64,000 bases of DNA from Dipteris shenzhenensis (Eukaryota). The position numbers and the translations under genes are program-made. This document shows positions 13,478-61,339 of the stretch, in pieces. The notes below the pieces were generated by a model. It saw only the letters and a program-made list of their open reading frames with translations. It had not been told where the DNA came from and ran no database searches. Location of the stretch: NCBI GenBank assembly GCA_047967505.1, contig CM106538.1. One strand, given 5' to 3'. Each line of letters begins with the position of its first letter. The first letter of the stretch is position 1.

Positions 13478-13516
<39 letters not shown>

Positions 13517-13820: not shown

Positions 13821-13952
13821 ATCTCTTAATTGTCTATGTGTTCCCTAGATAGATTCCACTTTTACTTGTCATATATCGAGATCTTTTGATGCTGTAATTG
13901 CAAGTTTCCTCTTTGGGAGCTGTCTCTTGTAAAATAAATTTGCATCCAAAAA
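13820..13952 (+). mobile_element. Very short 3' tail of a family B LINE
   Basis: Aligns with 35085-35229 and 29600-29740. Hairpin at 13904-13920, A tail, then (TG)n. Confidence 0.7.
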
Positions 13953-13969
13953 TGTGTGTGCGTGTGTGT

Positions 13970-22169: not shown

Positions 22170-25100
22170 GGATTATCAGTTGGAACATACAGGGCCTAGG
22201 TGGCGTCCCACATCGCCGCCGCAGACAGCTGATCCGGGATCAGCTTCATCCAGGTGTTACTGGTGGTCCCATTGATATATTATTTATTCAAGAGCACAAG
22301 CTGGATTATAGAGATTGTGCCAAGTCAGGCAAGTTGCTCTCAGGACATACTTTTTGGTCGCCTGCATTGGGCACTAGGGGAGGCACTTCTATTTCAGTTT
22401 CGCAGTCGGTTCTCCCCTTAGTTGTTGGGCACGGAGTCATTATCCCCTCTAGAGCTCAGTGGATTATTCTCTTGATTGGAGGGCGTAAGGTTGGCTTCCT
22501 CAACCTATATGCCTCCAACATTAGAGGGGAACGTGTCCTTATGTGGAAGACTTTGCTCTCCTGGGCCCCCATTGTGGATTCTTGGGTGATTGGAGGTGAC
22601 TTTAACATGGTCGAGTTACCTTCAGACAAAAAAGGGGGTAGAGAAGGCGGACTTCACTCTTTGGAGAGAGCAGCTTGGGATGCCTTCCTTTTCCATTTCT
22701 GTGGCAGAGATACTTGGTGTGATGATGCCTTTCTTATTCAGCCACAGTCCCTCCTGTTCTCTTGGTCGAACAGGAGGCAACAGATGCCTATTCATGCACG
22801 CATTGACAGATTTTATGTAGATGACTGGGCACTTGACAGAGGGGGATCGGTATGCATTGCTGCAGGGGTTTCCACCTCAGACCATTTCCCTGTTGTTTTG
22901 GCTATCTCAGAGCCTCACTTGAGAGGCCGATCAGCCAGCATCAGGATCCCAGATGCCTTTTACACAGAGGAGGACCTTACAGAGGCAGCCCTACGGGTAT
23001 GGTTTGCTCATGTCCAGGGAGGGCAGCCACATCCTTCACATTTAGCCGCTGCCCTCTCTGGTATTAGTGACTTTTACTGCTCAGTTGCTTCTACCAGGAG
23101 ACGAGATATTCTCAGACGTGAGATTGGTGTTCGCCAGCAGTTAGCAGCTTTGCAGAGGGAAGAGCAGAAACGGCCTTCAGATGCTTGGATTCAGGAGCGC
23201 CTTGCTGCAGCGAGGGCTCACTTGCAGTTATTGCTTGATCAGAGAGCAGAGTATGCCTTTTATGCACGGGAGTCCTTCTGGATTCAGATGGGTGGTAGAG
23301 TCAATAAACACTTCTTCTCTACTCTTGGCCCTAGACATAGTAGAGAGAGTGTATCTCAGCTTATTGACTCACATGGGGTTTTACAGACAGAGCCAGATGA
23401 CGTCTTACGCATAGCTTCAGATTTCTATGCCACCCTCCTTACTGCTGATCCTGAGACACACGATATAGAGGATGCTAGACAGGCTATTTGGCAGAGTATC
23501 CCAGTGTTGGTGAATCCGGATTTGCATGTTCTACTTGACGCACCTTTCACCAACACAGAGTTCAGGACTGCACTTTCAGCCCTTCACAAGGGCAAGTGCC
23601 CAGGTTTAGATGGCCTCACTCCGTCTTTTTTCATTGCATTTTGGGATATGATTGGAGACTATATTACTTCAGCCATGCAGGCCATTTGGGACTCTGGCGA
23701 GATGCCTGAATCGCTTACAGAGGGCCTCATCCACCTTATCCCAAAAGGAGGTAGCAGAAATTTATTGTCCCAGTGGAGGCCTATCACACTTCTGGGGACT
23801 TGTTACAAGATTCTGGCCAAGGCGATCAGCCTCCGATTGCAGCCACTTCTCCCTGATCTTATCCACGACACTCAGACGGGATTCGTGCATGGCAGAAGTA
23901 TTTTTGATAACATTTTTTCTTTCTGGGAAGCTTCAGAGTGGGCCGTGCAGAGTGGCCAGAATCTTGCCATTCTACTGTTGGATTTTGAAAAAGCTTATGA
24001 CAGAGTAGATTGGAGTTTTTTGGAGGGCACCCTACTACGCTTTGGATTCACTGATGTTTGGATCAGAGGTGTTTCCTCTTTGTACAGGTCAGCCCATAGC
24101 CAGGTACTTATTGGTGGGGTAAGGGGTGAGAGATTTCAGATTTCGAGATCAGTCCGTCAGGGATGCCCCCTTGCTCCTTTCCTTTTTTTATTCGTGGCCG
24201 AAGCTATGAGCATCTATGTTAGATCTCAAGCTGACATCTTTGGGCTGAGACTTCCTATCAGAAGAGAAGAGGAGCTGCTTGACAGTGAGTTGGCTGATGA
24301 CACAGCGATTTATTTGGATGCCTCTCCACAGACATTGACTTCTTTCAGGACAGCATTGGATTTATTTTGCTTGGCGGCAGGGGCGCAGATAAATTGGCAT
24401 AAATCCAATGGCTTTTGGATCAGTGATGAGGACACTCCAGTTTGGGGACTTGACATAGGGTTCACTTGGGTTCAGAGGGGTGTGCCTATCAGGTATTTGG
24501 GCTGCCAGGTCGGCTTGGGTATTTCTACCACGCAGCAGTTTGCTCCCGTGTTGGAGAGCATCAGAAGGAAGCTTCTCTTTTGGAGCTCAGCCAAGCTGGA
24601 TCTTGCCTCTAGAGTTGTGGTGGTCAACCAGGTCCTTTTGGCCACGGCCTGGTTTATTTGTTCATGTTGGTGCCGTTCTAGGGACTGCATCATTCAGCTC
24701 AGAAGACCGATCAGGAACTTTCTCTGGAGTGGACCTGATGGCACAGCAGATGCCTTAGCCAGGGTGGCTTGGGAGACCCTCATCCTCCCTACACAGGATG
24801 GGGGTCTCAATATTATTGATCCAGATTTACAGTGCAGAGCCTTACTTTGCAAGATAGTGGTGCGAGGACTTATGCCAGGACAGGAACCGTGGAAGGACTT
24901 TCTTATCAGCAGCATACAGAGGTGCACACCTTCCTCAGGAGGAGACTGGATGAGCAGTGTTAGATGGATTTTCACCTCAGCACACCTCAGATCACCTTCA
25001 TCCCCTCTCATGGTTGCCATTCTGAAAGCTTGGGCTAGTTTCAGAAGCTCTCTTCGGAGGATTCCTCCTTCCTCCCGGGAAGAGATTGATAGGCAGCCCA

Positions 25101-26512
25101 TCATGTGGAACGACAGTATTTTAGATGATCGTGGCAGACCACTGGGTGCCTCACTCTACATGCAGTGGGCCAGGTGGGAGAGGGGACCTGCTTCTTCTTT
25201 GGGATCTTGGAAAGCCTTCCGTAGGCTTCCAGAGGAAACCAAGTCAGGGTTGATAGGACATCTCAGAGGGAGTGCAGGGAGGATCTTGCAGATTGAGTCA
25301 GCCCTTCCAGAGGCTTGGATAGACACAGATGACATGCCTCTCACTACCTCCACTTGGGCAGGTACTTTCTCGAGAGGCGGGGTTCCACTTCAGGTCTTAG
25401 CCTTCCGAGGTGCACAGGAGGATGCTTTGGTTTTCAGTGTCCAGGATGGTGGCAGATTGCTCAGATCTACAGATGATATATTGCTTGAGTCTGCTTTTCA
25501 GCCTATCAGGGTCGTAGGCCTTTTGATGCAGGGATCAGATTCAGAGTGGTTCTTAGACCCTGACCCCCAGTTACTCTCCACCGGGTCTTGGAGACTTTGG
25601 CTCTATGGAGGAGTTCCCATTAGGTATTTACAGTGGGACCCCGGAGAGTGGGAGTGGATTGACGTGGGGCATCGAGAGAAGACCATCCCCTTCTTTCGTT
25701 ACACGGTCAGTAATGCCAGGAGATTTCAGCTCAGTAGTAGAGGTTGGAGACCCTCCAGAGTTCCTCATTGGGAGACTTTTGGTATTACTGCGGATCAGCA
25801 GAGGTACTTCTGGAGGAGGCTCTGGAAATCCCACAGGAATAGAAAGATCACTATCTTCTTTTGGCTTTCTATTCATGGAGGGATTGCAGTGAACCTTTGG
25901 AGGTCCAGATTCGGAGCCGACCCTACTTGCCCTCGTTGCCTTTCTGCTTCGGAGTCTATTCAGCATTGCTTATGGGATTGCAGACAGGCGAGATTGATTT
26001 GGATGGGGATAGCCAGGATCTTCAGTCACTTTGCCCATTCCCCACTCTTTATGACTTGGGGCTCGGTGGCTTGGCTTTCTCTTACAGGACCTCAGGTTTT
26101 CTATGAGGGACTTGACTCCTCCCAGGCCATTTCAGTTCGACATCATCGGGTTGAGCTCTGCTCGTTGGATGTGGTTACACACCGTCCTTTTACAGCTGTA
26201 CATGCCTCTGTGGATACTTCTTGGGAGATTATAGCGAGCATAGCAGCCTGGCATATCTGGAGATCCAGATGCACAGAGGCTATGGAGGGTACTCAGGTTC
26301 ATCCCTCGCACACATTGGCTAGTATCTGGACAGACATCGTACACACTCTGATGGCCGTATGGACGGGCATGCAGGGGGACTCCCGTGCAGCCTCAGCTAG
26401 GAGGGCTTCTTTCTTCAGGGAATGGAAGGATTCTCCTTTCTTCTCTGAATCTACTACAGGGTTGAGATGGCACTTTCAGCCTCAGCCTTGGTTTCTTTCC
26501 ACCTCACTCTGA
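22166..26512 (+). CDS. LINE ORF2p, 1448 aa: APE endonuclease, reverse transcriptase, zf-RVT; no RNase H recognised
   Basis: SWNIQGL, IQEHK, NLYA, GGDFN, RIDRF, SDHFP; PGLDG, WRPITLL, LDFEKAYD, RQGCPLAP, LADD, YLG; CPRC...HCLWDC. Confidence 0.97.
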   Translation: MRIISWNIQGLGGVPHRRRRQLIRDQLHPGVTGGPIDILFIQEHKLDYRDCAKSGKLLSGHTFWSPALGTRGGTSISVSQSVLPLVVGHGVIIPSRAQWIILLIGGRKVGFLNLYASNIRGERVLMWKTLLSWAPIVDSWVIGGDFNMVELPSDKKGGREGGLHSLERAAWDAFLFHFCGRDTWCDDAFLIQPQSLLFSWSNRRQQMPIHARIDRFYVDDWALDRGGSVCIAAGVSTSDHFPVVLAISEPHLRGRSASIRIPDAFYTEEDLTEAALRVWFAHVQGGQPHPSHLAAALSGISDFYCSVASTRRRDILRREIGVRQQLAALQREEQKRPSDAWIQERLAAARAHLQLLLDQRAEYAFYARESFWIQMGGRVNKHFFSTLGPRHSRESVSQLIDSHGVLQTEPDDVLRIASDFYATLLTADPETHDIEDARQAIWQSIPVLVNPDLHVLLDAPFTNTEFRTALSALHKGKCPGLDGLTPSFFIAFWDMIGDYITSAMQAIWDSGEMPESLTEGLIHLIPKGGSRNLLSQWRPITLLGTCYKILAKAISLRLQPLLPDLIHDTQTGFVHGRSIFDNIFSFWEASEWAVQSGQNLAILLLDFEKAYDRVDWSFLEGTLLRFGFTDVWIRGVSSLYRSAHSQVLIGGVRGERFQISRSVRQGCPLAPFLFLFVAEAMSIYVRSQADIFGLRLPIRREEELLDSELADDTAIYLDASPQTLTSFRTALDLFCLAAGAQINWHKSNGFWISDEDTPVWGLDIGFTWVQRGVPIRYLGCQVGLGISTTQQFAPVLESIRRKLLFWSSAKLDLASRVVVVNQVLLATAWFICSCWCRSRDCIIQLRRPIRNFLWSGPDGTADALARVAWETLILPTQDGGLNIIDPDLQCRALLCKIVVRGLMPGQEPWKDFLISSIQRCTPSSGGDWMSSVRWIFTSAHLRSPSSPLMVAILKAWASFRSSLRRIPPSSREEIDRQPIMWNDSILDDRGRPLGASLYMQWARWERGPASSLGSWKAFRRLPEETKSGLIGHLRGSAGRILQIESALPEAWIDTDDMPLTTSTWAGTFSRGGVPLQVLAFRGAQEDALVFSVQDGGRLLRSTDDILLESAFQPIRVVGLLMQGSDSEWFLDPDPQLLSTGSWRLWLYGGVPIRYLQWDPGEWEWIDVGHREKTIPFFRYTVSNARRFQLSSRGWRPSRVPHWETFGITADQQRYFWRRLWKSHRNRKITIFFWLSIHGGIAVNLWRSRFGADPTCPRCLSASESIQHCLWDCRQARLIWMGIARIFSHFAHSPLFMTWGSVAWLSLTGPQVFYEGLDSSQAISVRHHRVELCSLDVVTHRPFTAVHASVDTSWEIIASIAAWHIWRSRCTEAMEGTQVHPSHTLASIWTDIVHTLMAVWTGMQGDSRAASARRASFFREWKDSPFFSESTTGLRWHFQPQPWFLSTSL

Positions 26513-26744
26513 GGGGGTTTTTTATTATCCTCATGATTTCATGATGTATTCCGCTTTGAGCTTGCTCTCGCGGGTTTTTGTTCTTACTTAATAGAAGTCT
26601 TTTTCATGGAAAAAAAAAAAAAAGCGGATCCCAGGGCATCACATAAGCAAAGAAACCAGCCCCATGAATACCTGCATGACTGACAAGTCACTCCACCACA
26701 TCAGTCGAAGAGCAGTGAGCATAATAAAAACCTTTGCCAAGACA

Positions 26745-28276
26745 GAGTAAGACATTTGGGCTATCCCATTGGCTGGAAAATCAGAAATAAGCAACAAATA
26801 TCATGGGTGTTAAACAAAATTCAGGATAAATTAGAATATTGGAAGATCTCCACTTGGCCCCTGCATGTACGGCTTCGAATTGTCCAGTCCATTGTTCTAG
26901 TTTATGTCCAATTCTACCTTCCTCTATTACATTGGTCATCTCGAGATCTCACTTATTTTATGTCTCAAGCCATGGAGATTTTTTGGAAAACTAAGCTTCA
27001 TAAAAAAGCTTTAAGGTTGCTCAAAATGGACTTGCTTTGCTCACCAAGAATGCATGGTGGTTTGAATATAATAAACATCAAATTTCATGTGTTGGCAAGA
27101 AAGATCACTATGCTCAAGACATTTTTTCAACAAGAGCAGCCTTGGTCTATCATGTTGGCAATTTTGTGTGGTCAGATGCGCACAAATGCTTGTGGACATT
27201 GGCTAGTTGATCCATCGGAAGTAGTACTTGGCAAATTTCAAGGTAAAATCCCTGGTTGTCCATTTTCTACTTCCTTGATTCAGGATTGGAAGCAAGTTCT
27301 CTCTCGCATCAAATGGTCTCCCCATCCTGCTTCTATAGCTTCCTCACTCAAAATGGAAAGCATTCATTGCTGTACAACAACCAATCAGAGCTTACAATCT
27401 TATGAAATTGGGCATCCGGTTCATTGATGACGTGGTAGATACGCAAGGACATATTCTCTCTTTTCCGGTAGCATGTCGACAATACAATCTTGGGATGCAT
27501 CACAAACCTATTTGGAAAGCTACTGCTGATCTCTTACTCCCTTTGGTTCCGATTCCAACATTGAATGTAAGAGACAGGCTTCAAGATTGGCACCTTCAGT
27601 CTTCAAGTCCAAGAATATCCTCTCGGCCTTTGCATTTATTGACTTCTATACAGGCTTACCGATTGATATTACCTCCTCCTTGGATTGCTCATCATGCTAA
27701 TTCTCTATGGCATCTGAATAAGTCGTTAGCCTGGTGGAAAGGAAAATTGCAATTGATATGGAAGTTGAAAATGCCATTGAAGCAGAGACTCTTTCTATGG
27801 AGATGCATTGTTGATATTCTTCCAGTGGGAGTGAAATTGGCTCAAAGAAGGATTGCCTCACCTCTTTGTCCAAGATATCACCATACTCCTGAGAGTATTC
27901 CGCATTTATTGTGGTTTTGTTCATATTCCAGAGATCTTCTAGACAAGATCTCCTATTTCTTATCTCTCAGATTTCCTGCACACATGTTCTTCAGGTTTTT
28001 CTGGATGTATGGCAAACTATCAACTTCTTTGTTACAGCATTCTCTTTTCTTCCAATGGATCAGATACTGGGCCTTATGGACCCTCTGGCTGCAGCGAAAT
28101 CATGCATATCTGAATTCTCCCCTTCAGCACCCTTATGCGTTCTTCCGAGCCTCATTGCGGCAGTCTTTATATGATGCCTTACTTTTACTGCTTCTGATGG
28201 ATAGGGCATTGGCTCTTTTCTCGAGCACTACCCTGATGTAAATGAATGTTTCATAATATAATTTTCTTGGTTTCAC

Positions 28277-28280
<4 letters not shown>
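26745..28280 (+). mobile_element. Family B LINE, 5'-truncated (B2)
   Basis: RHLGYPIGW...GGLNI...zf-RVT homologous to 33200-34687. Tail TTTCACCAAA, then (GA)n(GT)n. Confidence 0.9.
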
Positions 28281-28315
<35 letters not shown>

Positions 28316-28350
28316 TGTGTGTGTGTGTGTAGTGTGTGTGGAGAGAGAGA
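28281..28350. repeat. (GA)n(GT)n microsatellite between family B copies
   Basis: Seen directly. Confidence 0.95.
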
Positions 28351-29735
28351 GGAGAAAGGACTTGCAGCCCTTGCTCTAGCCTTCCCATCAGCTCCAGAGC
28401 CTCCCCTAACCAGCCCTTTTGCTTCAGCTACCTATTGCGCTACATCAGAGCTCAAAAAAGGCGATTTGAAGCTTCAAATACCTGCTGTACAGCCCACCAC
28501 AGTTCTGTACGGTTTTCGTACAAGTGTATGGCCTGTCTCACCTTCTTCACGTTGCTGCTGTCAGTTGACTACCTGCTCTTTGGGTTGATTTTATGCAGGG
28601 TTTGGCTCACAGACTGCTCTATACGCTGGTTTTGAAGGCTCTCTGCTTCCCTTTCCTCTCCTCTTGGGTTTCCGGGTCCTGTGTACTTTTTCCATCGCCA
28701 AAATCCTCACTCTTTTTCTGAAATTTAGTTCATCTGGGAATTTTTATTGGTTTTTTTCTCCTCTTCCTCTACAGAACTTGTTTTTTCTTTTCTCTCGATC
28801 CCTACATCTCTCTTTCTCCTTCTTCTCCTCACAAATACACTAGTTTCCTCTTTTCTGTGGGCTGGTTTTTTGGGACTGTTTTTTTCTCTACTATCACTTC
28901 TCAGGTACCTCCTTTTTGGGTTCCATCTTCTTCCAAAGACATGGCTGAATATTCCTATGAAAATACTTTTCAAAAGGATCGATCAGTTCAATGAAAAAAG
29001 CAAAAGCAGACTGAGGGTCAGCATGACCCAGTGCATGATTCTGTTGAGGCACAACTAGTTTACGATGTCATGCATGAAGGATTTGCAGACACAAGGAAAG
29101 AGTGGAAAGACTCTGTTCCATCGGTTGTTCTCATGGTTGAAGTGGATCCAGTTAGAGAATATGCCAAAAATGCATTTATTTTATTTTTCCCAAGTCGGAT
29201 GCCACCTACTGCAGAGGTAGGCAACTGGTTGACCCGCACACTGGCTGGCTTGTTTGTTCGGAAGGTACACTATGCAGCCAGAAGTGTTTTTGAGGTCATT
29301 ATGGTAGATGAGATTCACAGGAAATGCTTTTGGAACATTCGCCCCTCCTTTTTGGGCAGCAAATGGTGCACGTTTTGCCATGGTCACCCACACGGTATTT
29401 TTAGGCTTTGATCCGACACCAATGTCCGGTCTGGGTTGAAGTTGTAAACTTCCCGCAATGCATGGCTTCACTCTTGTCTTTCCTTTACATGGGTTTACTA
29501 TCGGGCACTATGGACTTTATGGAAGGCCTAAAACCACAGGGCCTTTGGTGATATGTCCCTTGGCAAGTATCACCTCTTCCGCACATCTTTGCAGCAATCG
29601 TTCTTCGACTGTCTGCACTCAAGGACTTGACTATCCTGCTTTCTTGTCATATTATGAGATATTTTGATGTTGAAGCTGCATATCCTCTACCTGGGGACTA
29701 CTTTTTCTAATATATGTGTGTGTGTGATTCCACAA

Positions 29736-29740
<5 letters not shown>
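28330..29740 (+). mobile_element. Family B LINE, internally deleted (B3): 5' UTR + ORF1 N-half joined to ORF2 extreme 3' end
   Basis: ORF1 from 28941 closely matches 14514 onward. At ~29475 it switches to ...ALWTLW...SLQQSFFD and the family B tail. Confidence 0.85.
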
Positions 29741-29742
<2 letters not shown>

Positions 29743-29783
<41 letters not shown>

Positions 29784-29790
29784 CTGGTAT

Positions 29791-29828
<38 letters not shown>
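29743..29828. repeat. (GT)n microsatellite
   Basis: Seen directly, with one short interruption. Confidence 0.97.
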
Positions 29829-29831
<3 letters not shown>

Positions 29832-32800
29832 CTGGAGCGAGCGACGGTGAGTGAGCGACGGTGAGTGCAGGCACCCGACCCCCTTAGGTCTTCTCCCCCT
29901 CCGTCCGTACGTCCGTACGATCGCCGTACGGACGCTCCTGTTGTGCAGGACTGTAAGCTTCGTCGTCCCCCCGTTACGTTTCTACTTTCCCCATCAGCCT
30001 TTCCGTACGACGTGACATCGTCAGGGTATTCAGCTTTTCCGTACCACCCCGCCTCTTTCCGTATAATCTTGTACATCTTCGTCAGCACTTCTTGTCCGTA
30101 CAAAATCACTGTTGCACGATCCTCCGTACAGAATCCCGTACAACTTTTCCGTACAGTTTCTTTTCGTACAGTGCTCTCCGTGCAGTTTTCCGTACAGTGC
30201 TCTCCGTACAGTTTTCGTACAGCCTACCTGCACAGGCCTTCCGTACAGCCTCTGCCGTACTGTTCTGCACCTTCTCCCGGTGCTTTGTCTTTTCTCCATT
30301 TCTTGCTTGCTTTGCCATACCTCAACCATGGCTTCAGGTTCTGATGCCTGTACATATGCTCGAAAAGATAGACCTGCAAATGCCAAGCGACGTCCTTCTC
30401 TGCCTGCATCTCAGGATGATGAGCTCACTCTGGAAGCTCAATATGTGTTTGATACACTCAAGGATGACTTTCAGCAATCACAACAAGAATGGGGCAAACC
30501 AGTTCCAGAGGTCACATACAAATTGAAATTGCCCTCCCTTGTGAATCCTCTTAGGAAGCTATCTCAAACCGCGGTAATTATTTTCTTTCCAGGAAGAATT
30601 CCAGCTGCCAGTGATGTTGCGCAATGGATCAAGTCTATTCTTGGAGGATGCTTTATAGAGGGTGTATATTTTGCCTCCAGAGGCTTTTATGAGGTGCATT
30701 TATCTGATGCTTTGTGCAAGCAGAAGCTCCTTGAGCTTTCTCCCCTCTTTTATGGGAAGCAGATGGTACATGCCATGCCTTGGTCCCCAAACAAGGATTA
30801 CCAAAGTCTTATACGCCATCATTGTCCTGTATGGGTGGAGGTTGTTAACTTCCCGTACTATATGCATGAAGAATTGTCTGGTCTGGCCGCTTCATTGGGA
30901 CAGGTCATTTGCCCTCCACGCCCCATGGGAAATCGTAACAGATTCTGCATCCTCTGGGACACTGACATACCTACCCCTCCTTCTATTGCAGTGGAAGTTG
31001 AGGGTGTGCAATTGGGGAAAAAGTTTTTTGACTTGAAATGGGGTGTATTTGCAGGCGCTTGCTTTGCTTGCCATAAGTTTGGGCATCTAGCCTCTGAATG
31101 CCCAATAGTTCTGCATCAACCCCCTCCTAATGCCTTGCCACCTCAGACAAGGGAAAAGAATGAGAATTTGCAAGTCAAGCCAGCAACTCGAAATGGAGCA
31201 AAGAATCTTGCTTCAGTCTATGCCTCCCAGACTTCTGCCATGAGGGCCTCTCTATGGGAATCTTTAAGCAAATATCCATGGAGATCTAATGCATTTATCT
31301 GTGGAGATTTTAACAATTCTCCTCTGCTGAGAGATAATACCACTTCACGATCTCATATGCTTTCATCGGAAAGACAGAAATGGGATAGCATGCTTCTCTT
31401 TGTGCAGGCTGAAGATTTATGGCTTCTTCTACAAGGGTCAGTGCCCGGATATACTTTCCATCATAATGCATTTACCACATACTGGGCAAGGCTTGACAGA
31501 TGGTATCTGTTCTTTCCACAACAATATGCAGATTTCAGCCTTCATCTCCTCATAGATTTCTCATTGGGATTGTCAGATCATGCCCCATTATGGTTAAATC
31601 TGCAATTTGGTATGCCACTGGATGATTTGCCGACTCTCTCCAGCAGATTACTGCATGTTAATCAGGCTTATTTTCGACATCAATATTTCCAGCAAATGAT
31701 CAGAGTTGCAATTCATCCCTTGCTTTTGCATGCTCAGGAGGACATGAATTATGCTTGGGACAGCTTTGTCTCTCGTATACAGAATGTCATTAGGGACTAT
31801 GGAAAATGGCACATGGCTACATGGAGGAATGAGGTCAAATGGGCAAAAAGGACAGCACAACAGCTGACTGAATTTTCACATTTAAGGCCTCTTTCTGAAT
31901 CAGAAAATGATTCCCTCTCACAAGCCCGGATTAAACTGACTGACAATGATCAGCGGAAATTGCACAAATGGCAGATTAGAGCAAGAATGAAACCCCTCAT
32001 GGATAAGGGCTGCTCATCAAAAGCCTTCTTCAAGGGCCTGCATGCCACTCGAAAGAAAAACTCATGTCTAAGGGTCAGGAAACTAGATGGATCTTGGATG
32101 CACTCCTTCTCTGATCTCCAAGATGAATGCCAGAATTACTTCCAGACACTGTTCTCTACCCCTGGATCCCCATCAAATCAAATGACTGATGCAAGGACTG
32201 AAATTCTTCAATATGTTACTGGGATAGTGAAAATGGATGATGCTCTATTATTTGACAGACCTTTTACTGACACGGAACTTGAGAATGCATTGTCCCATCT
32301 TGGCAAATACAAGTCCCCTGGCTGGGACGGTCTTACGGTGGAATTTTATATTTCTTTTTGGGATGATTTGAAAGATGTTCTCTTACAAATGATCAATGTT
32401 GCCTGGCAACAAAATCAATTGCCGCACCTCTGGAAGCATGGCATCATCAAACTTGTGCCAAAAAAAATCTTTGTGATCATATGTCAGATTGGAGGCCTAT
32501 TACTTTGATGCCTGTAGTTTACAAACTCATTGCCAAAATGATTGTATATAGGCTTCAAGGGACTCTGAATGCGGGCCTTCATCCTCATCAGTATGGATTT
32601 GTGCCGCGAAGACAAATTCATGACAATATCTCCAATGCATTGACTGCAATTGAATATGCTAAGTACTCGAATCAAGATGTGCTCATATTGCAGGTAGATA
32701 TCTCTAAGGCATTTGATACTGTACAATGGGATTTTATCTCTCAAACCATGACAAAGTTGGGATTTGGTCCCAAGATTGCAAATGCAATTTATTGGCTTTA

Positions 32801-34778
32801 TTCTGGCTCTACTTCCCAGTGCATTCTCGGAAGCCATCTATCTCGGTCATGGACATTGGGTAGATCAGTCAGACAGGGCTGCCCCCTTAGTGCTCTTTTC
32901 TATGCCATTGCGACTCATCCCCTCCTGATGTATCTTGATCACCTTACAAGCACAGGACAGATGACTGGTCTTAAAATCCCTGGGGCTGCATCCTTTTTGG
33001 CACAGGCATATGCTGATGATTCCTTTTTTATGCCACAGAACTCTCCTCGGGAAGTCCGCATGCTTATGGCCACATTATCATTGTATGGATAAGCAGCGGG
33101 ATTGCATATCAATTTTGACAAATCCAAATTGCTTCCACTGAAACAATGTGACTGGCATTCTATTCTCTGGCCTGGTCAGATAGTGCATTCCAAAGAGGTT
33201 GTCAGGCATTTGGGATATCCTATAGGATGGCATATCACCAGGAAGCAACAGCTTAAATGGATCTTCCAAAGACTTCAATATAAATTGGACTATTGGAAAA
33301 TTTCTACTTGGCCACTTCATGTTAGGCTCAGAATAGTCCAGTCTATTGTAATGTCTTATGTTCAGTTCTTCTTGCCTTTAATACATTGGTCCTCTAGAGA
33401 TATCTCAGCTTTTATGTCTCAAGCGATGGAGCTGTTATGGAAGACAAAAACTGCTGTGAAAGCATTGAGACTGCTGAAGATGGAAATGGTGTGCTCCCCT
33501 AAGATGCATGGAGGACTTAATGTTCTAAATATCAGATATCATGTACTTGCAAGGAAGGCGACTATGCTCAATGCCTTTTTCCGTCAAAAACAGCCATGGA
33601 CTTGTATGATAGCATCCATGTGTGTCGGACAAATGCTTATGGCCATTGGACTACTGATCATTGGGAGGTTGTCATTGGGAGATTTGTAGGGAAGATTCCT
33701 AGATGCCCTTTCTCTACTGCTCTGATACTGGACTGGAAACAAGTGCTTTCTAAAGTCAAATGGACTCCTGATAATCATTCGGGGACAAACTCAATGCGGA
33801 AAGAAAGTATTCATTGGAGTGCCATCTTTGACACTCCACTTGCTTTACAGGAACCGGTAAGGGCATATAATCTCATGAAATTGGGAATCAGATACATCAA
33901 TGACGTGGTAGATGATCATGGCCATATTTTATCTTTTCCTCAGGCCTCTGCCACTTATGCATTGGGAATGCACCACAGGTTGATATGGAAGAAAATTGCT
34001 GATCTCTTGCATCCTTTCCTTCCTATTCTCCCTGTGGCTGACACAGACAGGCTTATGGATTGGAAATTGTACCCCACTGCTACATGCTCTCGTCCTATTC
34101 CTCTGTCCGTTTTGACCTCCATCAAAGTCTACAAGCTTCTTCAGCCTGCCCCTTGGATTCATCAATATGCTAATACTCTGTGGCATATCAGGCGGCCTCT
34201 TTCATGGTGGCGGAAGAATCTCCGACTAATATGGAGGTGTAAAATGCCTTTGAAACAAAGACTTTTTCTTTGGAGATGCTTGACTGGCACACTGTCAGTG
34301 GGAATCACACTTGCTAAACGTCACATTGCTTCACCCACTTGCCTACGGTGTCACGCTCCTTCAGAGACTGTCCTTCATCTACTTTGGCATTGTCGGAAAA
34401 TTTCAGATCATCTTCGCCTCCGTTTCCCGAGTCACATATTTGGGAAACTCTTTTGGTTATTTGGCAAATTTAGGATGTCATTATCTCAATACTCACTCTT
34501 TTTCTCATGGGTGAGATATTGGGCTCTTTGGACAATTTGGGAAGAACATAATTTGGCATATTTGGGCCGTCAGTTTCAAAAGTCATATGAATCCTTTAGA
34601 GCCTCATTGCGGCAATCTTTATATGATGCCTGCCATGAGGGTGATATACATGCATCTTGCATTGAGCTTTTCTTTTTATGCTTCTGATCTGTGGAATACT
34701 CTCCATCTTGGAGACTTTCCCTCTTGTAAAGTTATGACATTATAAATACACAGCACTGGATTTCACTTTAAAAAAAAA
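29829..34778 (+). mobile_element. Family B LINE copy B4, near full-length with internal deletion
   Basis: CCGTAC-rich 5' UTR, ORF1 from 30328, EN/RT/zf-RVT, A tail 34770-34778, then (GT)n. Confidence 0.93.
30328..34687 (+). pseudogene. B4 ORF1 fused in frame to a truncated ORF2; frameshift ~32465, stop 33090, frameshift ~33620
   Basis: CFACHKFGHLASEC...GAKN|LASVYA...CGDFNN...SDHAP...SPGWDG; WRPITL, VDISKAFD, RQGCPLS, YADD. Confidence 0.9.
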
Positions 34779-34790
34779 GTGTGTGTGTGT

Positions 34791-35229
34791 TTTCCTTTAT
34801 GGATCTTTATGGTTTTTTCTGATACTCCCTACACCGATCCCTTCAAGATGCACGTGCACAAGGAGATCTTCCTCTGGCCCAATCAAAATCTTTCTTTCAC
34901 TATTTTTAGTTCAGAGTAGAAGTTGCTCCTCTTTGGCGCAGCTTTGAATGTATATTTTTCTTGGCTTTTTCCATCTTCTTCTAGTTTATGAGTAGTAGTT
35001 GTCTCACTTTGGGAGGGCTATGAATGTACATTCTTCTTAATGAAAGATTCTTGACAAGAAAAAAAAAAGTGTGCGATAGTGTCTTTCTAAGATTGTCTGT
35101 GTTTTGGTCAAATAGATTATTCTGTTTACTTGTCTTACAATGGAATTTTTTGATCTTGTAATTGCATGTCCCCTCTTTGGGGACTGCTTCTTGTAATATA
35201 AATATACACAGATTTCACCCCAAAAAAAA
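34791..35229 (+). mobile_element. Two stacked short family B-type 3' fragments (34791-35068 and ~35075-35229)
   Basis: The first encodes SLHRSLQDARAQGD (cf. B4 SLRQSLYDACHEGD); the second aligns to 29600-29740. Each ends in an A tail followed by GTGTG. Confidence 0.75.
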
Positions 35230-38200
35230 GTGTGTGGTAGTGTGTGGAGAGAGGGATAGGAGAGAAAAGGATCGCTGCTTCCCTGGTCGTCTTTCCATCC
35301 CTCTCTAGGCGTTCTCTAGCCTCTACATCCCCTCGTCAGGGCTCTATCTGAGTCACGCTGCTCTCCTGTACTTCTATCCTTGCTCACGCCTGCTGTACAG
35401 AGCTTGCCTAGGCTTCCTTTCCCTGCGTGCAGGTCTTCTTGCCCTTTGTCTTCAGCCGCGACACCCTCCTTTCTGCTGCTCTCTTTCTGCTGCCCTTTGC
35501 ATTCTGTTTTTGCCCAAGGGGCATGTGAGTGTGGTGTGTGTGTCTGGGCATTTCTGGGTTTTTCATCGCTGGTGTGTGTACGGTTTTGATGCTTTCAGTC
35601 TCTACTAGTTCGCTTGCTCATAGGCTCTGTTTTTCCTTGCTGTTAACACATGTAATTCCTCTCCTTGTACCAACTGTTTATACTCTCTCTTAGCTGCTGC
35701 TCTTTTGCTGTCCATAAACCTTGTCTTTCAAACTCCTTTGCTCTCCCCAAAATCCTGGTTTTCCAACCTCTCTTTGTTGACCCTCAACCCTGGTTTTGCA
35801 AGCTCTCTTTGCTGTCTATATACCCCGGTCTTTCAAGCTCTCTCTGCTTTCTGATTTTCGCTGTGTGTTGGGTTATTTTCCTGGCTGAAATGGATCCAGT
35901 TCAATACAAAAGGGCCAACCTCAAGTGTCATCAAGAGTTGGTTGCAAAAGGTCCGGAACAATGCCTCAATCCTGAGCTGCAGCCTTTTGCAGACACTTTG
36001 CGGAAAGGTTTTTCTGAGATTAATCAAGCATGGATGCCGTTTCTGTTCCGGTCAAGTTTTATATGTTCCAATCATGAGCTTGGCCCAAAAAAGCAGTTGT
36101 TTTTTTCTCTCGGAAGGATGCCTGATGCAGCAAATGTGGGACAATGGTTGAAATATGTCTTGAAGGGTGGGATGTTGCAGGTTCTTATAAGGCTACCAAG
36201 GGATTTTATGAGTTATCATACATGCTCAATACAAGCAAAAGTTTTTGGAGAAATCGATTGGTGCACGTATATGCGTGGATGCCTACTAAGGATTACTAGA
36301 GTGTTATACGGCACAATGCCTATCTTTGTGGAAATGGTAGATTTACCACTATATTGCAAGCCAACTTTGCCGTACTTAGCAGAGGCTTTGAGGAAAGTGG
36401 CTTGTCCCGCATGCTCTTCTAGCAATTCCAGTCATTTTTGTGTGTTGTCCTCCACATGTGGCTTTATAAGTAGATATGCCGGGTATGCCTTCTCAGCAGG
36501 TCTTTTTTAAATTGAAATGGTGCAATTTTACAGGAGCTTGCTTTGAGTGTGGAAAGTTTGGGCACATGCAATCAGAGTGCCCTCAGCTTCTGTAGAAGCA
36601 TCCCCCCACAACTGCAACCCCTAATGATACTTCTTTGCCACGGCCATGTATCATGCAACAAACTCGTGGTTTGGGGACAGCAACCTCACCCAAGGCTAAT
36701 GACAAGAGCAAGGCTAAAATGCCTTCTACAACCTCCAAGACAGGGATAAAATGGCAACTAGGAAGGAAGACGCTTGTTCTTTATTTATTTTCCAAAAAGA
36801 TTACTTCATTAAGTATTAATGAAAACCGCAAGAGCAAGCTCTAATGCGAAAGTACATCATGCCATGCATGAGAAAAAAACCAGCTCAAAATGAGCTAACC
36901 AAAAACCAAGGTGGAGTCTGAAAATGCCACCTCAACCCTAAAGGAGACTCAGAGAAGAAAGGAGATCCCCTCCAAACTCTGAAAAAAGTCTCTCTCCGGG
37001 CTGTAGCTACTCTGGAGGATCCCTGCATGCTCACACAGATGGCCATCAGTGTGTGTATAGTATCAGTCCATATACTGGCCCTAGACTGGGAAGGGTGAAC
37101 CTGGGAACCCTCCATCGCCTCCATACACCTGGCCCTACAAATATGCCAAGCTGCAATGCTAGCCAGAATCTCCCATGATGTGTCTACCGAGACATGAGCA
37201 ACTCTGAAAGGAGTGAAGGGAACATCTTGGAGAGAACATGACTCCACAGAGTGTCATCGTATAATGAAGGCTGAGTCTGAGTCATGTCCCTCGAAAAAAA
37301 CCTTATGGCCAGTAAGAGAGAACCATGCCACTGATCCCCAAGTCATGAACAAGGGTGCTCTATGAAATATGCTAAATATCCTGGCAACACCCTTCCAGAT
37401 TGTCCTCGCATGTCTACACTTGCAAAGGCAGTGCTGAACTGACTCAACTGCTACATGGCATCGAGGACAAGTAGGGTCAACCCAGAACCTGGATCTCCAA
37501 CACAAGTTCACTGCAATTCGTCCATGAATAGAAAGCCAAAAGAAGAGAGTGATCTTTCTATTCCTCTTGAGGGATTTCCAAAGCCTCCTCCAAAAGACGC
37601 TTATTCTGATTGGCAACAACCTAGAAATTGCTTAAGCCGAGACCTATGGCTAGTAAAAACTAGACGGAGACTGAATCCACTTCTAAGAAGGCTGCTGTAG
37701 CTAACAGTTTCTGGGGTTGGCAGGCTCTGGTCTACAATGATTCGTGCGAATCCTCTATATCTTTCACATATGGCAGCCATTTCACCGAACAATCTTGCCT
37801 CTTCCACACGTATTTCCAATGATGAACAAGGGAATGCTTATGATGGGTATGCTGGCTCACCACATCCCGGTGCAACCATGCAGGTTGAGACTTGAAGTTG
37901 CAGCCCACTCAAATGCTTTTCGTATAATGCTCGGGGCCTCTGTAATATAAATAAGTGAATATTGGCTTGGGATTACATAGTTAATCAAAAGCCACATATT
38001 AAATTTTGCAATAATACAATCGGCACTTTTTTGCAGGCCATGAAGGTTTCTTTGGGGGATTTCATATTCAGCAGTTGCTATGCTGATACATCATGATTTA
38101 CAACCGTTGTTGGAATATAATGACCCACTTTGTCATTAGCTGTTTGTCAGATGCTTTAATTTATGTCTCCCATACATCTGCAGTTCAAGCTAAGGCGTGA

Positions 38201-39700
38201 AATCATTTGACCAACTATCCCTAGAGAGGAAATGCTTTCATATGTGGGATTTTAACAATTCCCCTTCCACTAAGGATAGCAGTACTCATCGATCTCACAT
38301 GTTATGGAGAGAACAAGATGTCTGGACACAAACGTCTCATACTTTGCATGCTTGTCGCTTATGGTATACATTTCATCTTAATGCATTCACTCAGTATTGG
38401 GATCGGTTAGATCGATGGTACATGGCAATTTGATGATATAACTTGTGAGATGGGTTTGGATTATACTTTGCATCTATCAGATCACTTTCTGATATATATC
38501 ACTTTGCATTTTGGTCCTCCGGTACATGATGTGCTGTCATTGCCTTGTAGAAGGCTCTTATTGGTTAACAATTCATATCTAAAGCATCATGACTTTACAG
38601 TTATGGTCAATGATCTCATTCGCAGACGTGTTTTGCATGCACCAGCAAATGTCAACTCTTCTTGGGTATGCAGGATTTGATCAAAAGTCATGGCAAATGG
38701 TACCTAGGGTGATCTACGTCAAAAGGTGGCTAATTCAAAGGATCAAAATCAGCAATTAACAACTGCTGCGCAGCAACGTCAACTGTCTCAGGATGAGCAA
38801 TCTATCTTTCAAGCTGCCCTCCATTGTTTGGCTGAGAACGATCAAACCATGTTAACAAAATGGCAGCTACGTTCTCATCGAAAAGGACAAGCTGTTCTTC
38901 TAAGGCTTTTTTTTTAAGCTTGCATACCTCCCAATAGATGCATTCCTTGCATCGGGTGCTGTGTCTGAATGGCTCGTGGACAATGAATAAGCAAGAGCTA
39001 GATGGGATGTCCAGCACTATTATGCTAGTTTGTTTGCAGCCCCTCCTCCTTTACCTATAGAGATTGATGCCAAGGAGGTATTTCTTAGCCATGTTAAACA
39101 AAATATCTCATTAGATGAGGCTCGTGTTTTGGAGTTGCCGAGGAGCATTGTCTAGGTTGGGATGCTCCAAATCCCCAGTCTGGGATGGTCTCACTGTTGA
39201 GGTTTTTGTTGAATTCTAGAATCAATTGAGCACTGTTCTATTGTACACGATTAATGATGCGTGGCTCCCTAGCACTATGCCGTGGAAAAAGGGATTGCTG
39301 TGTTTGATTCCCAAAAAGCCATCATACAAATATTTGTCAAACTAGAGGCCAATCACAGTCACGCCTGTGATATATAAGCTGATTTCTAAAATGTTGGTAT
39401 TGCACATATCACATTACCTGTATACGGGGTTACACCTTGCTCAGTATGGTTTGTGTCCCCACAGACAGATAATGGATAACATTGCAAATGCTTACATTGG
39501 CATTGAATATGCCAAATACATGCAACAAGATGTTTCGATCATGCAAGTGGATATTGAAAAATCATTTGACACTATTAGATGGGATTTTATTGCAGATGTT
39601 ATGCGGCGGTTCAGCTTTGGACCCAAAATGCAAAAGTGGTATACTGGCTTTATGAGGATGGCACAGCCTACCGACGCTCTGCTATCCTCTCAATGACTTG
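35230..39700 (+). mobile_element. Family B LINE copy B5, heavily decayed, 3'-truncated, interrupted by a family A fragment
   Basis: 5' end resembles 28330. ORF1 from ~35890. EN (SYNARGL, DFNNSP, RLDRW, SDH) and RT (VDIEKSFD) remnants. Ends in (TG)/(CATA) repeats at 39730-39835. Confidence 0.85.
36781..37593 (-). mobile_element. 5'-truncated family A-related LINE with 14-bp TSD
   Basis: FWRRLWKS...CPRC...WHFQTPPWF. TSD AAGACGCTT(G/A)TTCT at 36767-36780 and 37594-37607. Confidence 0.92.
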
Positions 39701-42700
39701 CTTTTTGACATACATAAATGTACATCATCTGTGTGTGCATGAATATAGATGTATATGTGTGTGCTTGTGCGTGTGCGTGTGCATGAGTGTGTGAATATAT
39801 ACATACATACATGAATACATTCGTGCATGTATGTATAAAGGCAAGATAACCGCTGCAGTCTTAACCTCATGATAGTCACCCTCAAGATACAAAACCATAA
39901 ACTCCATCATAGAAATTTCCTTGTTTCCAAGGGCAATACAGCAGAAACCCAAACGAGAAACACAGGCTTAACCTTCAAAATTCTCTTAATACTGTTTTGC
40001 AGCCAACCATTGCACCACACTTCTCCCACAATTTTGCTTGAACAAAAACACATATACACCTCAACACACCTGATCTTTCCTTGGGACGTCATTCCTTATC
40101 CATCTTCGACACAAAACATAGAGAGAGGTCGAATCAGAATCAGCTGCAACACTCACCTAACCAAAAAAGGAGAAAAAAAGGTTGAGCAGCAGCACACAAT
40201 TCCAATAGTTCAAAACTAGAAGCCAAAGTGTTTTGATGTTGAAATGAAGAAAGAGCAAGGAATGAATATGAATGTATCTTCAAGGCAGCCAAACGTCTAA
40301 AAATTAAATGCTGAATTTTACCAGCTTTAACAAAATGAATGTCTAGATCCAAGCATCAAAACATACACTCGCCTGTAGCTTTAGGTTTGCCTGTATCCCG
40401 CTTGCCTTAGCACTCACTCCATTGCACAAGAGACACTTCCTATAAAGTGCCTAAAGTTCCTTGATTCACTTCTTAACATACATGAGCAGGTCTTGTAAAT
40501 TGAGACTCTACAGCATAGCCACTTTAAAGACACTTGGTTGTTACAAGGTTAGTACAATAAACAGCCTTGCAATGTCATCCGGGTTGCTAAGTAATCAAGG
40601 GATCTTTTGCATGCACGGAAGGATTCAATGCTGAGGTGAAACGCTACAAGTATCGGGACCTTACCATCCAAGCTTTCACTTTCAGCACCATTTCAAACTG
40701 GTCTCAAGACCAACAAGACGGCAATAAAGACAACTAACCAGCTAAAGACGTCACACAAGAATATTCAGCAAGTAACCCAAACACAGATTGGGGGAGCTAG
40801 AGCGCTCCTACTCAATAGCAAACACAGACTGGGCCCAAAGCCTTGGCGCCCCTTCAGGTCTCTCTTTATTAATTGGAGAGTCCAGCAAGTAGATTACACA
40901 ATGAACTCAAACTCACTTGCATTCAGTGCTCTTCCCACTCTCAGTAGGCACCAGTATCCCAACCATTAGCGCCCTGCTCTCAAATCCCAATGGCAATAGG
41001 CATCCAATTCAGTGCAAACACCTCCATAAAACTTGGGCTCTTGCTAGCAGCCCATACGGGGTCACACAACTCCCCAAACTACCACAAGTGACCACTGACT
41101 CACTGGAATACCCAAGCAATGGGTTAAAGCATAGTTAACCTGCCCAATCCTTGGAAGCAGGAACTTGCTCTGCAAGCATTCACTGTGTATCACCCTGCCA
41201 AGCAATTATGTCCAAAAACACAGCTCACTACCCAATAGCAATAACTAAAAAGCATGAGTAAATTCTTTACCAGCCCGGAGCCCAAGCTCATCCACAGCCA
41301 ATGCACATCACCTGGAAAGCTTTCTATACACACTGCCACACAGTTAGCTGCCCAAGCATCCTTAGCTCAAATGCACGTGCACCTAGCCCACGGCCTCTGC
41401 AAACAGCCCACGAGTTGTACGGCTGATCAACATTAACTATTCACAAGTCCGTACAACCTGTACGGAGTGCTTCAAAGCTCCCACGTATGGCTGTACGGCC
41501 TACACCAGAACTGTACGAACTCCAAACTGTCTGCTTCAAGACCCTCTACGTACGGCTGTACAGATCTGTCCATCGCCTATCGTACAGCTGTACGAGCAGC
41601 TTCACAATCGTGCAGATTTCAACGTCTACCGTACGGCTGTACGAAATGCTTCAGTACTGTCCTGTGTCTACCATACAGTTGTACGGACTATTTCATAGCA
41701 TTCAATGCACCGCCTTGTTGACCAACCTTTCAGCCCATTTTTCCCCGCTCTGTGAAAACACCTTCCGTGACTTTTTCCCTTCCTGGGACCTTCCACAGAC
41801 CACCTTGCTAATTGCATTTTTGCATGGACATGCCACATGAAAGCCCACGTTTTTAAAAATGCCCCCAAGTCCCAAGTGATCAAAGCAATGACCAACTTTA
41901 AAGCTCATTTGCCCCTTGTCCCTTCTAAGGGGGCCAAACCAATGGCCAACCTCAATCCTAAGGGTACTTTGCCCCCTCTTTGGACTTATTGGACTTGAAC
42001 GTCTCATTTATCCCACTAACTCAGGTGGCAGTATGTTGACAGTATCAAACCACAATTCCCTAGGGGGAAAACTTGCACATCCATACCTCGCGGCTTTGCC
42101 AGCTAGTTTTTCTTGGTCGTGCCTACATGCAAGTACAAAACTCATGCCCTCATGACATACCCCTCTCTTGAAACATGACACGCAACCTCAATTGCATCAA
42201 GATGTTACAAAAATATATAGTAACTGAAATACATGTGAATATACCAACATGAAAGCATGTATTACCATTTGAGACAGCATATATGATTGTTCAAAACCTA
42301 GGATAGCAATCTATATAAACTGCAAAAACCAACTCATAGTGATTAGTACACTTATCATAGAAGTCTCAAGGCAGATATACTATCAACAAACATACAATGT
42401 CACCAAGAGATCTCTAGATATCTGAGCTTGTCTGTGGAAAAGGAACAAAGGTACTACCCCTCTCTTGAGCATTAGACAATGCTACAGACCTACGCTTTGT
42501 TGAGCCTGACGGAGCCACAAGTGAAGTCGGCTCAAGCTGAAAAGATTCTAGATAGCGCTATAATAACTGAGGTTTATATGCCAGATCATCCTCTTCCAAC
42601 CACTTTGCATGCAATGAAGATACGAAGTAGCGGGGTGGTAAATTCTACCTCTGATCTTCCTTTTCTTATGTGGAACTAGGATCTCATCAAGCTTCTCAAC

Positions 42701-44800: not shown

Positions 44801-45262
44801 TATTACGCTCTAGCCGAGGTAGCATGACCTCGGAAGAATCAGTCGACATTTCCCTTATAGGATCTATCTTTGTAATATATGTGTTTGCGCTTTATGTAAA
44901 TGATCGGGAGGGATTTAATGTCAAGGTCCTAGGTGAGGGCTGATAGCACCAGACTAGATAGATCTGAGACCAAGGGCCTAGTGCTAAGATTGTGCCTAGG
45001 GGCAAGGAATTGAATGCATCCCAAGAGAGGGGTGAAATGTTGCATTAGGAAGGCCCTATATGGATGGCATGTGGCATCTAGATCTATCTAGGGATTTGGG
45101 GTTTGCTAAGGCTAGTGAGAGAAGAGAAGGAATGGATTTATGTGAATTTCAACATAGATCTCTGCCTTGCTTTGTGCCTTAGCAGAATAGGCTGGGAGGA
45201 GAATCATGGTGCTACTCCCGTGATCTGCAGTAGAGGCTAGTATAGAGAATAGTTGGTTGACA
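44801..45262 (+). repeat. 5' LTR (462 bp; begins TA instead of TG)
   Basis: Matches 51193-51654 with 3 G/A differences found by eye. Confidence 0.97.
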
Positions 45263-45264
45263 AT

Positions 45265-45276
45265 TGGTATCAGAGC
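45265..45276 (+). promoter_or_regulatory. Primer-binding site for initiator tRNA-Met
   Basis: TGGTATCAGAGC, 2 nt after the LTR end. Confidence 0.95.
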
Positions 45277-51180: not shown

Positions 51181-51192
51181 AGAGGGAAGGAA

Positions 51193-51654
51193 TGTTACGC
51201 TCTAGCCGAGGTAGCATGACCTCGGAAGAATCAGTCGACATTTCCCTTATAGGATCTATCTTTGTAATATATGTGTTTGCGCTTTATGTAAATGATCGGG
51301 AGGGATTTAATGTCAAGGTCCTAGGTGAGGGCTGATAGCACCAGACTAGATAGATCTGAGACCAAGGGCCTAGTGCTAAGATTGTGCCTAGGGGCAAGGA
51401 ATTGAATGCATCCCAAGAGAGGGGTGAAATGTTGCATTAGGAAGGCCCTATATGGATGACATGTGGCATCTAGATCTATCTAGGGATTTGGGGTTTGCTA
51501 AGGCTAGTGAGAGAAGAGAAGGAATGGATTTATGTGAATTTCAACGTAGATCTCTGCCTTGCTTTGTGCCTTAGCAGAATAGGCTGGGAGGAGAATCATG
51601 GTGCTACTCCCGTGATCTGCAGTAGAGGCTAGTATAGAGAATAGTTGGTTGACA
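51193..51654 (+). repeat. 3' LTR (462 bp, TG...CA)
   Basis: Preceded by PPT AGAGGGAAGGAA. Confidence 0.97.

Positions 51655-60660: not shown

Positions 60661-60709
<49 letters not shown>

Positions 60710-61289: not shown

Positions 61290-61339
<50 letters not shown>

Follow-up and report, generated by a model that had tools for sequence, protein, structure and literature searches.

Long interspersed nuclear elements (LINEs) that insert into particular microsatellites are the nearest described counterparts of the elements reported here, a group of L1-type LINE copies, called family B below, that lie head-to-tail at GT repeats in a 64,000-nucleotide stretch of Dipteris shenzhenensis DNA (assembly GCA_047967505.1, contig CM106538.1; this whole stretch is referred to as the window). 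One of the known elements, Mino, which was reportedly first described by Kojima and Fujiwara in 2004, belongs to the insect R1 clade and has a tail that is the repeat itself. Microsatellite-specific LINEs with an endonuclease of the apurinic/apyrimidinic (APE) type include Waldo (ACAY), Mino (AC), Kibi (TC), Koshi (TTC) and Dong (TAA), all of them animal elements in the sections of the review drawn on here (Grandi & An 2013, PMC3812793). A study of Tx1 families places Kibi, Koshi and their crocodilian relatives at (TC)n, (TTC)n and (TTCC)n, with the crocodilian ones preferring (TTCC)n or (TTTC)n, and credits a family with a microsatellite preference, as a working criterion, when over 20% of its flanks carry one and the same repeat (PMC4494074, in the part used here). 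Our literature search, whose coverage was incomplete in that most subscription journals and Repbase Reports lay outside it, returned no plant LINE described as microsatellite-specific, and the only green-lineage retroelements with a microsatellite bias found within the same incomplete coverage were the Penelope-like Chlamys elements. Set against this background, the reading that accounts best for the data is that family B copies home to GT tracts by repeated target-primed insertion in a fixed orientation, through a preference of the B machinery, and we regard its truth as an evenly balanced question.

Family B shares features with each of several known systems and departs from each of them, as far as the portions of the cited papers used here describe them. 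Mino (MinoAg1 of Anopheles) is similar in its AC/GT tract flanks and fixed orientation and has an APE-type endonuclease (PMC3812793), of which family B carries a probable counterpart, whereas family B is plant L1-type, has a zf-RVT domain and an ORF1 (first open reading frame) with DUF4283 and CCHC motifs, and carries poly(A) between its body and the GT repeats. Kibi, Koshi and the crocodilian Tx1 families likewise belong to the L1 group; they have an APE endonuclease, probable in family B as well, and show the kind of microsatellite preference proposed for it (PMC4494074), but, compared by description, they are vertebrate elements at other repeat units, and the nearest named relatives of family B are fern and liverwort proteins. 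The fish element Togen targets (TG)n, the repeat found beside family B, but belongs to NeSL-related animal families with a restriction-like endonuclease (PMC4640811). The Chlamys elements of green algae favour (CA)n and occur as head-to-tail copies, but they use a GIY-YIG endonuclease and, as Penelope-like elements, are another class of retroelement (PMC8557442). Zepp of trebouxiophyte algae is a green-lineage L1-type element that forms clusters of itself, one per chromosome; there, however, one copy sits within another, with no head-to-tail order or microsatellite spacers, and the part of the paper drawn on here reports no GT association (PMC3446292). Finally, ordinary plant L1 elements, represented in the window by a second lineage, family A, resemble family B in domain architecture, poly(A) tail and target-site duplications, and the conserved 3' end motif of family B recalls the plant L1 lineage with a 'stringent' 3' end (Ohshima 2012, PMC3472496). 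Family A differs in having unrelated flanks and no stacking.

The window is plant-type nuclear DNA rich in LINEs, in which the two L1-type lineages were separated by self-comparison, an open reading frame (ORF) scan and a Pfam scan. Family B is represented by eight pieces, half of them (4/8) 5'-truncated, and all eight lie on the + strand, so that their sense strand is the GT strand. Pairwise DNA identity among them is 66-87%, which indicates several subfamilies and makes the GT trait common to diverged subfamilies. The copies, the spacers between them and the elements that interrupt the locus are as follows.

13824 to 13952, + strand: copy (a), a 5'-truncated B 3' end with an A5 tail, 91/123 identical to E2 (nhmmer E = 1.6e-16)
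13953 to 13971, + strand: spacer between (a) and B1, a 19-nt TG tract, TGTGTGTGCGTGTGTGTGT
13972 to 19165, + strand: B1, with intact 5' end, ORF1, putative APE endonuclease (N-terminus at 15797), reverse transcriptase and zf-RVT; 6 frameshifts, 3 stops
19166 to 19975, resuming at 26634 and running to about 26730, - strand: X, a LINE ORF1 piece (DUF4283 and CCHC) split by the nested family-A element
19976 to 26623, + strand: nested family-A L1, outside the stack; it splits the B locus and serves as a control within the window
26730 to 28280, + strand: Bb, a 5'-truncated B copy holding the C-terminal part of ORF2 with zf-RVT; tail CACCAAA
28281 to 28330, + strand: spacer between Bb and B3, (GA)17 then (GT)9, 50 nt
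28331 to 29740, + strand: B3, an internally deleted B copy that keeps the 5' untranslated region (UTR), the N-terminal part of ORF1 and ~270 nt at the 3' end; A7 tail
29741 to 29828, + strand: spacer between B3 and B4, 88 nt, GAG(TG)21, an 11-nt interruption and (GT)18
29829 to 34778, + strand: B4, the least decayed B copy; 2 frameshifts, 1 stop; A9 tail
34779 to 34791, + strand: spacer between B4 and E1, a 13-nt GT tract, GTGTGTGTGTGTT
34792 to 35068, + strand: E1, a 3' fragment of 277 nt; A10 tail
35069 to 35082, + strand: spacer between E1 and E2, 14 nt, GTGTGCGATAGTGT, the upstream copy of the E2 target-site duplication
35083 to 35229, + strand: E2, a 3' fragment of 147 nt; A8 tail
35230 to 35238, + strand: spacer between E2 and B5, 9 nt, GTGTGTGGT
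35239 to 39660, + strand: B5, more decayed than any other B copy; 5' end apparently intact, truncated inside the reverse transcriptase

All six B 3' ends consist of an A-run followed by a GT tract, with 5 A in (a), 3 in Bb, 7 in B3, 9 in B4, 10 in E1 and 8 in E2; in five of the six the GT begins within 3 nt of the tail (at once or past GAG), and in Bb it is reached via (GA)17. The four intact B 5' ends (B1 at 13972, B3 at 28331, B4 at 29829 and B5 at 35239) all stand directly behind a GT tract, and each opens with an A right after ...GTGT. Both of these patterns had been reported in a preliminary description of this DNA and were borne out, the coordinates being exact within 2 nt. The six spacers measure 19, 50, 88, 13, 14 and 9 nt. 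When both strands of the window were searched with a profile of these six ends, no other 3' end of B type turned up (next best E = 0.26), so the six are all of its B tails. Moreover, none of the five non-B LINE tails (at 6457, 26623, 55778, 11703 and in the minus-strand piece ending near 36780) is followed by GT, in agreement with the earlier claim that family A lacks such flanks; the family-A tails are longer, with 12-14 A, and still lack GT. As background, 0.9% of window positions have GTGTG or TGTGT within the next 4 nt. The pattern A5-N(1-3)-GTGTG gave 14 overlapping matches at five distinct sites, all of them B tails, compared with 0.44 ± 0.77 matches in shuffled sequence, where none of 100 shuffles reached 14. 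Among the 32 A-runs of at least 7 nt (16 per strand), four are GT-flanked and all four are B tails; the remaining 28 have no GT and none adjoins a B copy. On the + strand, 14 GT runs of at least 8 nt comprise the six spacers, the first bases of B3, three runs within B copies, one in the fragment nested in B5, two past the broken end of B5 and one that is free (60506). Both stacking and GT flanks are real, non-random features, far beyond chance.

These junctions belong to a single locus. Since the interval between B1 and Bb holds only X and the nested young family-A element, the stack at 13953 and the one at 26.7-39.8 kb are one, their two parts having lain ~0.9 kb apart before the family-A insertion. 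A first count of two independent B loci was dropped on these grounds, and from the preliminary description of one stack in one orientation the common strand of all eight copies stands, while the 13953 junction is not a separate locus.

The flanking repeats themselves bear on whether the GT was target DNA or part of the template. E2 is flanked by GTGTGCGATAGTGT (35069-35082) and GTGTGTGGTAGTGT (35230-35243), which are identical at 12/14 positions, non-repeat bases included, and the downstream copy extends into the first five bases of B5; E2 is therefore younger than B5 and duplicated the GT region at the 5' edge of B5. At B3, GAG(TG)n stands on both sides with 20/20 identity, and the upstream copy is the edge of the (GA)/(GT) tract. 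Four of the spacers (9, 13, 14 and 19 nt) have the length of target-site duplications. In addition, an AATAAA-like signal lies 15-35 nt upstream of every B A-run, and a conserved GATTTCAC-type motif precedes the A-run in 4/6 copies; the AATAAA-like signals argue that the A-runs are genuine poly(A) tails, in which case the GT lies outside the ordinary transcript. The direct repeats at E2 and B3 and the signals, with the unequal decay of the copies described below, suggest that the GT flanks are duplicated target DNA from separate insertions and not a normally templated tail. A3-A10 tails in 6/6, 5' truncation in 4/8 and the direct repeats are also L1-type traits. The same data bear on an explanation that we consider rather improbable, in which specificity resides in the RNA and not in the endonuclease: read-through transcripts ending in A(n)(GU)n would pair with the AC strand at a nicked GT tract and prime there, so that the GT after the tail would be partly templated. 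GT lies directly downstream of every B copy, so read-through would indeed give such RNAs; site-specific LINEs are known to make use of target sequence acquired by read-through, and the B A-runs are short and fairly uniform (3-10 nt, versus 12-14 in family A). Nevertheless, the AATAAA-like signals and the conserved motif fit normal polyadenylation, and the flanking repeats of E2 and B3 resemble local target duplications.

Two other candidate duplications were rejected. AAGACAGAGTAAGAC, upstream of Bb, turned out on alignment to B4 to be Bb coding sequence, and at the true 5' junction of Bb, near 26730, no recognisable duplication was found; TGTTGTTGTTG, upstream of copy (a), is unconvincing as a partner of the TG spacer. 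A conserved 3' hairpin in family B is weak (5-bp consensus stem, -2.6 kcal/mol, few compensatory changes) and was not relied on. In E1 an apparent ~65-nt tandem duplication (34885-35015) covers a conserved hairpin-like motif of the 3' UTR, with a weak second profile match at 34890-34954 (E = 0.26). The 88-nt tract before B4 is interrupted at 29783-29793 by TTCTGGTATGA, which resembles the first bases of B4, ACTCTGGAGCGAG, and may derive from a 5' end of B4 type, either left behind or duplicated locally.

The copies have decayed to very different degrees. Measured against an intact relative (P0001), frame changes and stops number 2 and 1 in B4 (~1200 aa compared), 6 and 3 in B1 (~1107 aa) and 1 and 0 in Bb (441 aa), and in B5, which also contains a nested LINE fragment, 234 aa of ORF2 can still be aligned. 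This unequal decay, along with the 5'-truncated E1 and E2 within the stack, points to separate insertions over a long time and not to one concatemer, and argues for a stack built stepwise over a long period. Formation in one or a few complex events, in which the reverse transcriptase, on reaching the 5' end of a B RNA, jumped to the 3' end of a second one and so made a concatemer, is accordingly highly improbable. Tails do adjoin 5' ends with short spacers, and B3 combines a B5-like 5' terminus with a B1-like ORF1, taken as RNA-level recombination in the B lineage. Neighbouring copies nonetheless differ greatly in decay, B5 alone carries a nested insertion, E1 and E2 are truncated inside the stack, the E2 direct repeat includes the first bases of B5, and template jumps leave the GT spacers unexplained.

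If family B does home to GT tracts, its copies would have entered the locus one by one through target-primed reverse transcription at the tract, the B sense strand always being placed on the GT strand. The bottom (AC) strand would first be nicked at or beside the 5' edge of the tract, and the poly(A) RNA would then be reverse transcribed from that nick. A cut in the top strand 9-20 nt further on would give a GT-rich target-site duplication flanking the new copy, so that insertion would rebuild 'A tail + GT' at its own 3' end and leave GT ahead of its 5' end. With each insertion rebuilding both, the landing pad would multiply, and subfamilies of different ages would pile up head-to-tail. The earlier suggestion that the element stacks upon itself gains from E2, a later copy that landed in the GT region at the 5' edge of B5, but all junctions come from one locus. 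The nick can be placed at five junctions (B1, B3, E1, E2 and B5), where the duplications start with GTGTG, TGTGTG or GAGTGTG and the preceding base is A, from a resident tail or a GA run. The target may thus be a purine-run/GT junction, regenerated at each new tail, which would explain both the 9-19 nt spacers and the self-stacking. We infer that the preference would be a property of the B machinery, either in endonuclease nicking or in pairing at the A/GT junction, and would hold genome-wide.

The A before every placeable nick may also mean that the target was simply the resident tails, and it is the starting point of the most serious competing account, which we nevertheless think unlikely. 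In it, family B would be an ordinary L1 with a preference for A/T-rich DNA that nicked in a resident tail or an A-rich target-site duplication; the first copy would have adjoined a GT tract by chance, and GT would since have been copied passively, with some tracts expanded later. An A precedes the duplication at all five of the above junctions and comes from a resident tail in four, the four short spacers are exactly as long as target-site duplications, only a single locus is involved, and a poly(A) tail requires a T-ended primer in the established L1 mechanism. Against this, stacked B copies occur at 0/5 non-B tails, those of A12-A14 included, and at 0/28 of the other A-runs of at least 7 nt; the 5' end of B4 follows pure (GT)18 and has no tail closer than 88 nt; the B3 nick falls at a GA/GT edge and not in an A-run; and six successive insertions at one small site demand an attractor beyond A-richness.

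A further alternative, to which we give little credence, treats the GT tract as a fragile or non-B (Z-DNA-prone) DNA site, where breaks or open chromatin attract LINE cDNA regardless of endonuclease and family B was merely the lineage active when the tract was exposed. Microsatellites have been described as 'landing pads' for plant and human transposable elements, most strongly for tracts that tend to adopt unusual DNA conformations (PMC12477314, in the part used here), and B4 has no endonuclease N-terminus. The single orientation of 8/8 copies and the target-site duplications indicate instead a strand-specific event of endonuclease type, and family A, with an intact young copy in the window, left the tracts unused.

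Several observations weigh against GT-tract homing and explain why we do not put it higher. The nicks fall at A-runs, a placement expected of an ordinary L1 endonuclease, and the B tail is poly(A), which does not pair with an AC primer; to our knowledge the microsatellite-specific LINEs Waldo, Mino, Kibi, Koshi and Dong all end in their target repeat. A 10-nt GT run at 60506 is not occupied by a LINE, nor is a 33-nt (AC)16 tract at 61305-61337, and neither of the two leftmost copies, (a) and Bb, is preceded by GT. The flanks of B4 and E1 are pure repeat and, because GT repeats are low in complexity, uninformative as duplications. The window contains no intact B endonuclease (B4 has no N-terminus and B1 is frameshifted). 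All B junctions lie in one locus, and the six events are non-independent samples of the genome. With regard to the 20% criterion (PMC4494074, in the part used here), 6/6 of the 3' flanks in the window carry the repeat, from one locus only. Orientation relative to the repeat strand is fixed in 8/8 B copies, and the 3' tail is not made of the target repeat, an A-run standing between body and GT in 6/6. Taken together, homing of family B to GT tracts is plausible and partly supported, and one locus cannot prove it.

The coding sequences identify family B as a plant L1-type lineage with, judging from domain matches, a probable APE endonuclease, RVT_1, zf-RVT and an ORF1 of the DUF4283/CCHC type. 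In the Pfam scan RVT_1 was found in B4 (E = 6e-26) and also in B1 and B5, zf-RVT in Bb, B4 and B1, and DUF4283 above the cut-off in B4 and weakly in B1; the best solved relative of the B reverse transcriptase is human L1 ORF2p (E = 1e-18). The endonuclease pieces of B1 fall below the cut-off for Exo_endo_phos (E = 0.02 and 0.045), and the B4 remnant gives E = 7.5e-4. B1 has a plausible N-terminal start of an APE-type endonuclease, MLAHIKCLTLNVQG...ALQEH, and shares 42-50% identity with a fern protein, P0003; the endonuclease of P0003 does pass the cut-off and has the human L1 endonuclease as its best solved match. B4 had been described as full-length, but its endonuclease N-terminus is short by about 100 aa: at 30067-32508 ORF1 continues without a frame change into the endonuclease, entering it at about residue 100-120, with the end of ORF1 and the catalytic N-terminus deleted, so that the best-preserved B copy cannot be autonomous. 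A search for relatives (4 matches among 3425 candidates) gave as the closest named ones hypothetical proteins of the fern Adiantum nelumboides, one with 48% identity over 38% of the query and one with 61% over 25%, plus a liverwort protein, and a 1248-aa relative carries a plant-type zf-RVT. These relatives bear only indirectly on the Tx1 clade, to which nothing in the comparisons, made without Tx1 reference sequences, ties family B. Families A and B share 24-36% protein identity in ORF2, counting matched stretches only.

The 5' UTRs of family B are mosaic (compared regions: B3 28331-28773, B1 13972-14348, B5 35239-35300). B3 is 87% identical to B1 over ~715 bp of ORF1 and adjacent UTR, and its first ~60 nt are like B5 and unlike B1, which suggests that leaders may have been swapped within the B lineage. 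The common start of B3 and B5, noted previously, holds up, but the match is short and low in complexity (46/63 identical, with a score of 36 where shuffles reached at most 33).

As for the boundaries of the copies, homology of copy (a) is firm from 13824 onward only, its 5' boundary being uncertain (13790-13824). B1 has no 3' end; homology ceases abruptly inside zf-RVT at ~19165, and an extension to 19426 was rejected as a weak, 35% match, firm homology ending near 19165. At the junctions at 19165 and ~26730, B1 stops abruptly against the reverse piece X, and X abuts the 5'-truncated Bb, which may be due to deletion, inversion or twin-primed insertion. If X and Bb were one twin-primed (5'-inverted) insertion into B1, the remainder of B1 would be expected downstream, where it is absent. 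B5 carries a nested reverse A-like fragment at 36780-37596 (- strand), and a degenerate GT/ATAC tract follows it at 39720-39835.

In family A, ORF1 combines DUF4283 with a CCHC knuckle, and ORF2 carries Exo_endo_phos, RVT_1 and zf-RVT. Both frames are uninterrupted in the nested copy at 19976-26623 (ORF1 of 515 aa; ORF2 of 1457 aa with endonuclease, RVT_1 and zf-RVT). This copy ends in an A14 tail, its 15-bp target-site duplication, AAAAAGCGGATCCCA, is perfect (19961-19975 and 26619-26633), and it is probably recent and possibly active. Other family-A material comprises a decayed copy (to 6457) and A-like 3' fragments at 54812-55778 (+ strand) and, within B5, at 36780-37596. C+T-rich tandem repeats with units of ~23-128 nt form the family-A 5' regions (305-730, 20005-20550 and 63600-64000), the last block probably being the start of a further copy, and a GA-rich block at 9171-9860 may be such a region in reverse. 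A third LINE ends at 11703. A Ty3/gypsy chromovirus at 44803-51655, with 461-bp long terminal repeats (LTRs) that are 99.6% identical and two long ORFs (gag-protease-reverse transcriptase and RNase H-integrase-chromodomain), looks like a very young insertion. Direct repeats at 52943-53235 and 59392-59712, 86% identical and ~6.5 kb apart with intervening ORFs that have no Pfam match, may be the LTRs of an older element. The (AC)16 tract mentioned above is part of a compound (TC)12(AC)16 at 61279-61337, which on the minus strand reads (GT)n(GA)n, resembling the GT-GA start of B3 and B5, and has no LINE adjoining it. A repeat family at 60405-60719 and 61759-62022, whose copies are 67% identical, ends in ...GGTCTCCCGTGGAC followed by (CT)13-21, and a similar GGGAGACCAA(CT)18 lies at 13470 (13465-13515); it may represent a second association of a transposable element with a microsatellite in this genome.

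Target-specific LINEs serve as models of how endonuclease and RNA jointly choose a site, and as starting points for targeted insertion tools. We propose, tentatively and with less assurance than for homing itself, that family B is a fern-type land-plant L1 lineage that independently evolved (GT)n homing: its endonuclease would recognise the purine-run/GT junction, each insertion would restore that junction behind its own tail, and the element would thus make its own landing pad, giving rise to long-lived head-to-tail arrays of a single orientation. If this is true, the unspecific family A and family B would form, within one genome, a natural pair for mapping the determinants of specificity. 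It would also extend a safe-haven strategy which, in the portions of the literature drawn on here, is described for animal R1, Tx1 and NeSL elements and algal Penelope-like elements and not for poly(A)-tailed plant L1. Homing to GT by such an element would then mean that the niche strategy had evolved once more within the canonical L1 clade, and would explain part of the association between microsatellites and transposons in large plant genomes.

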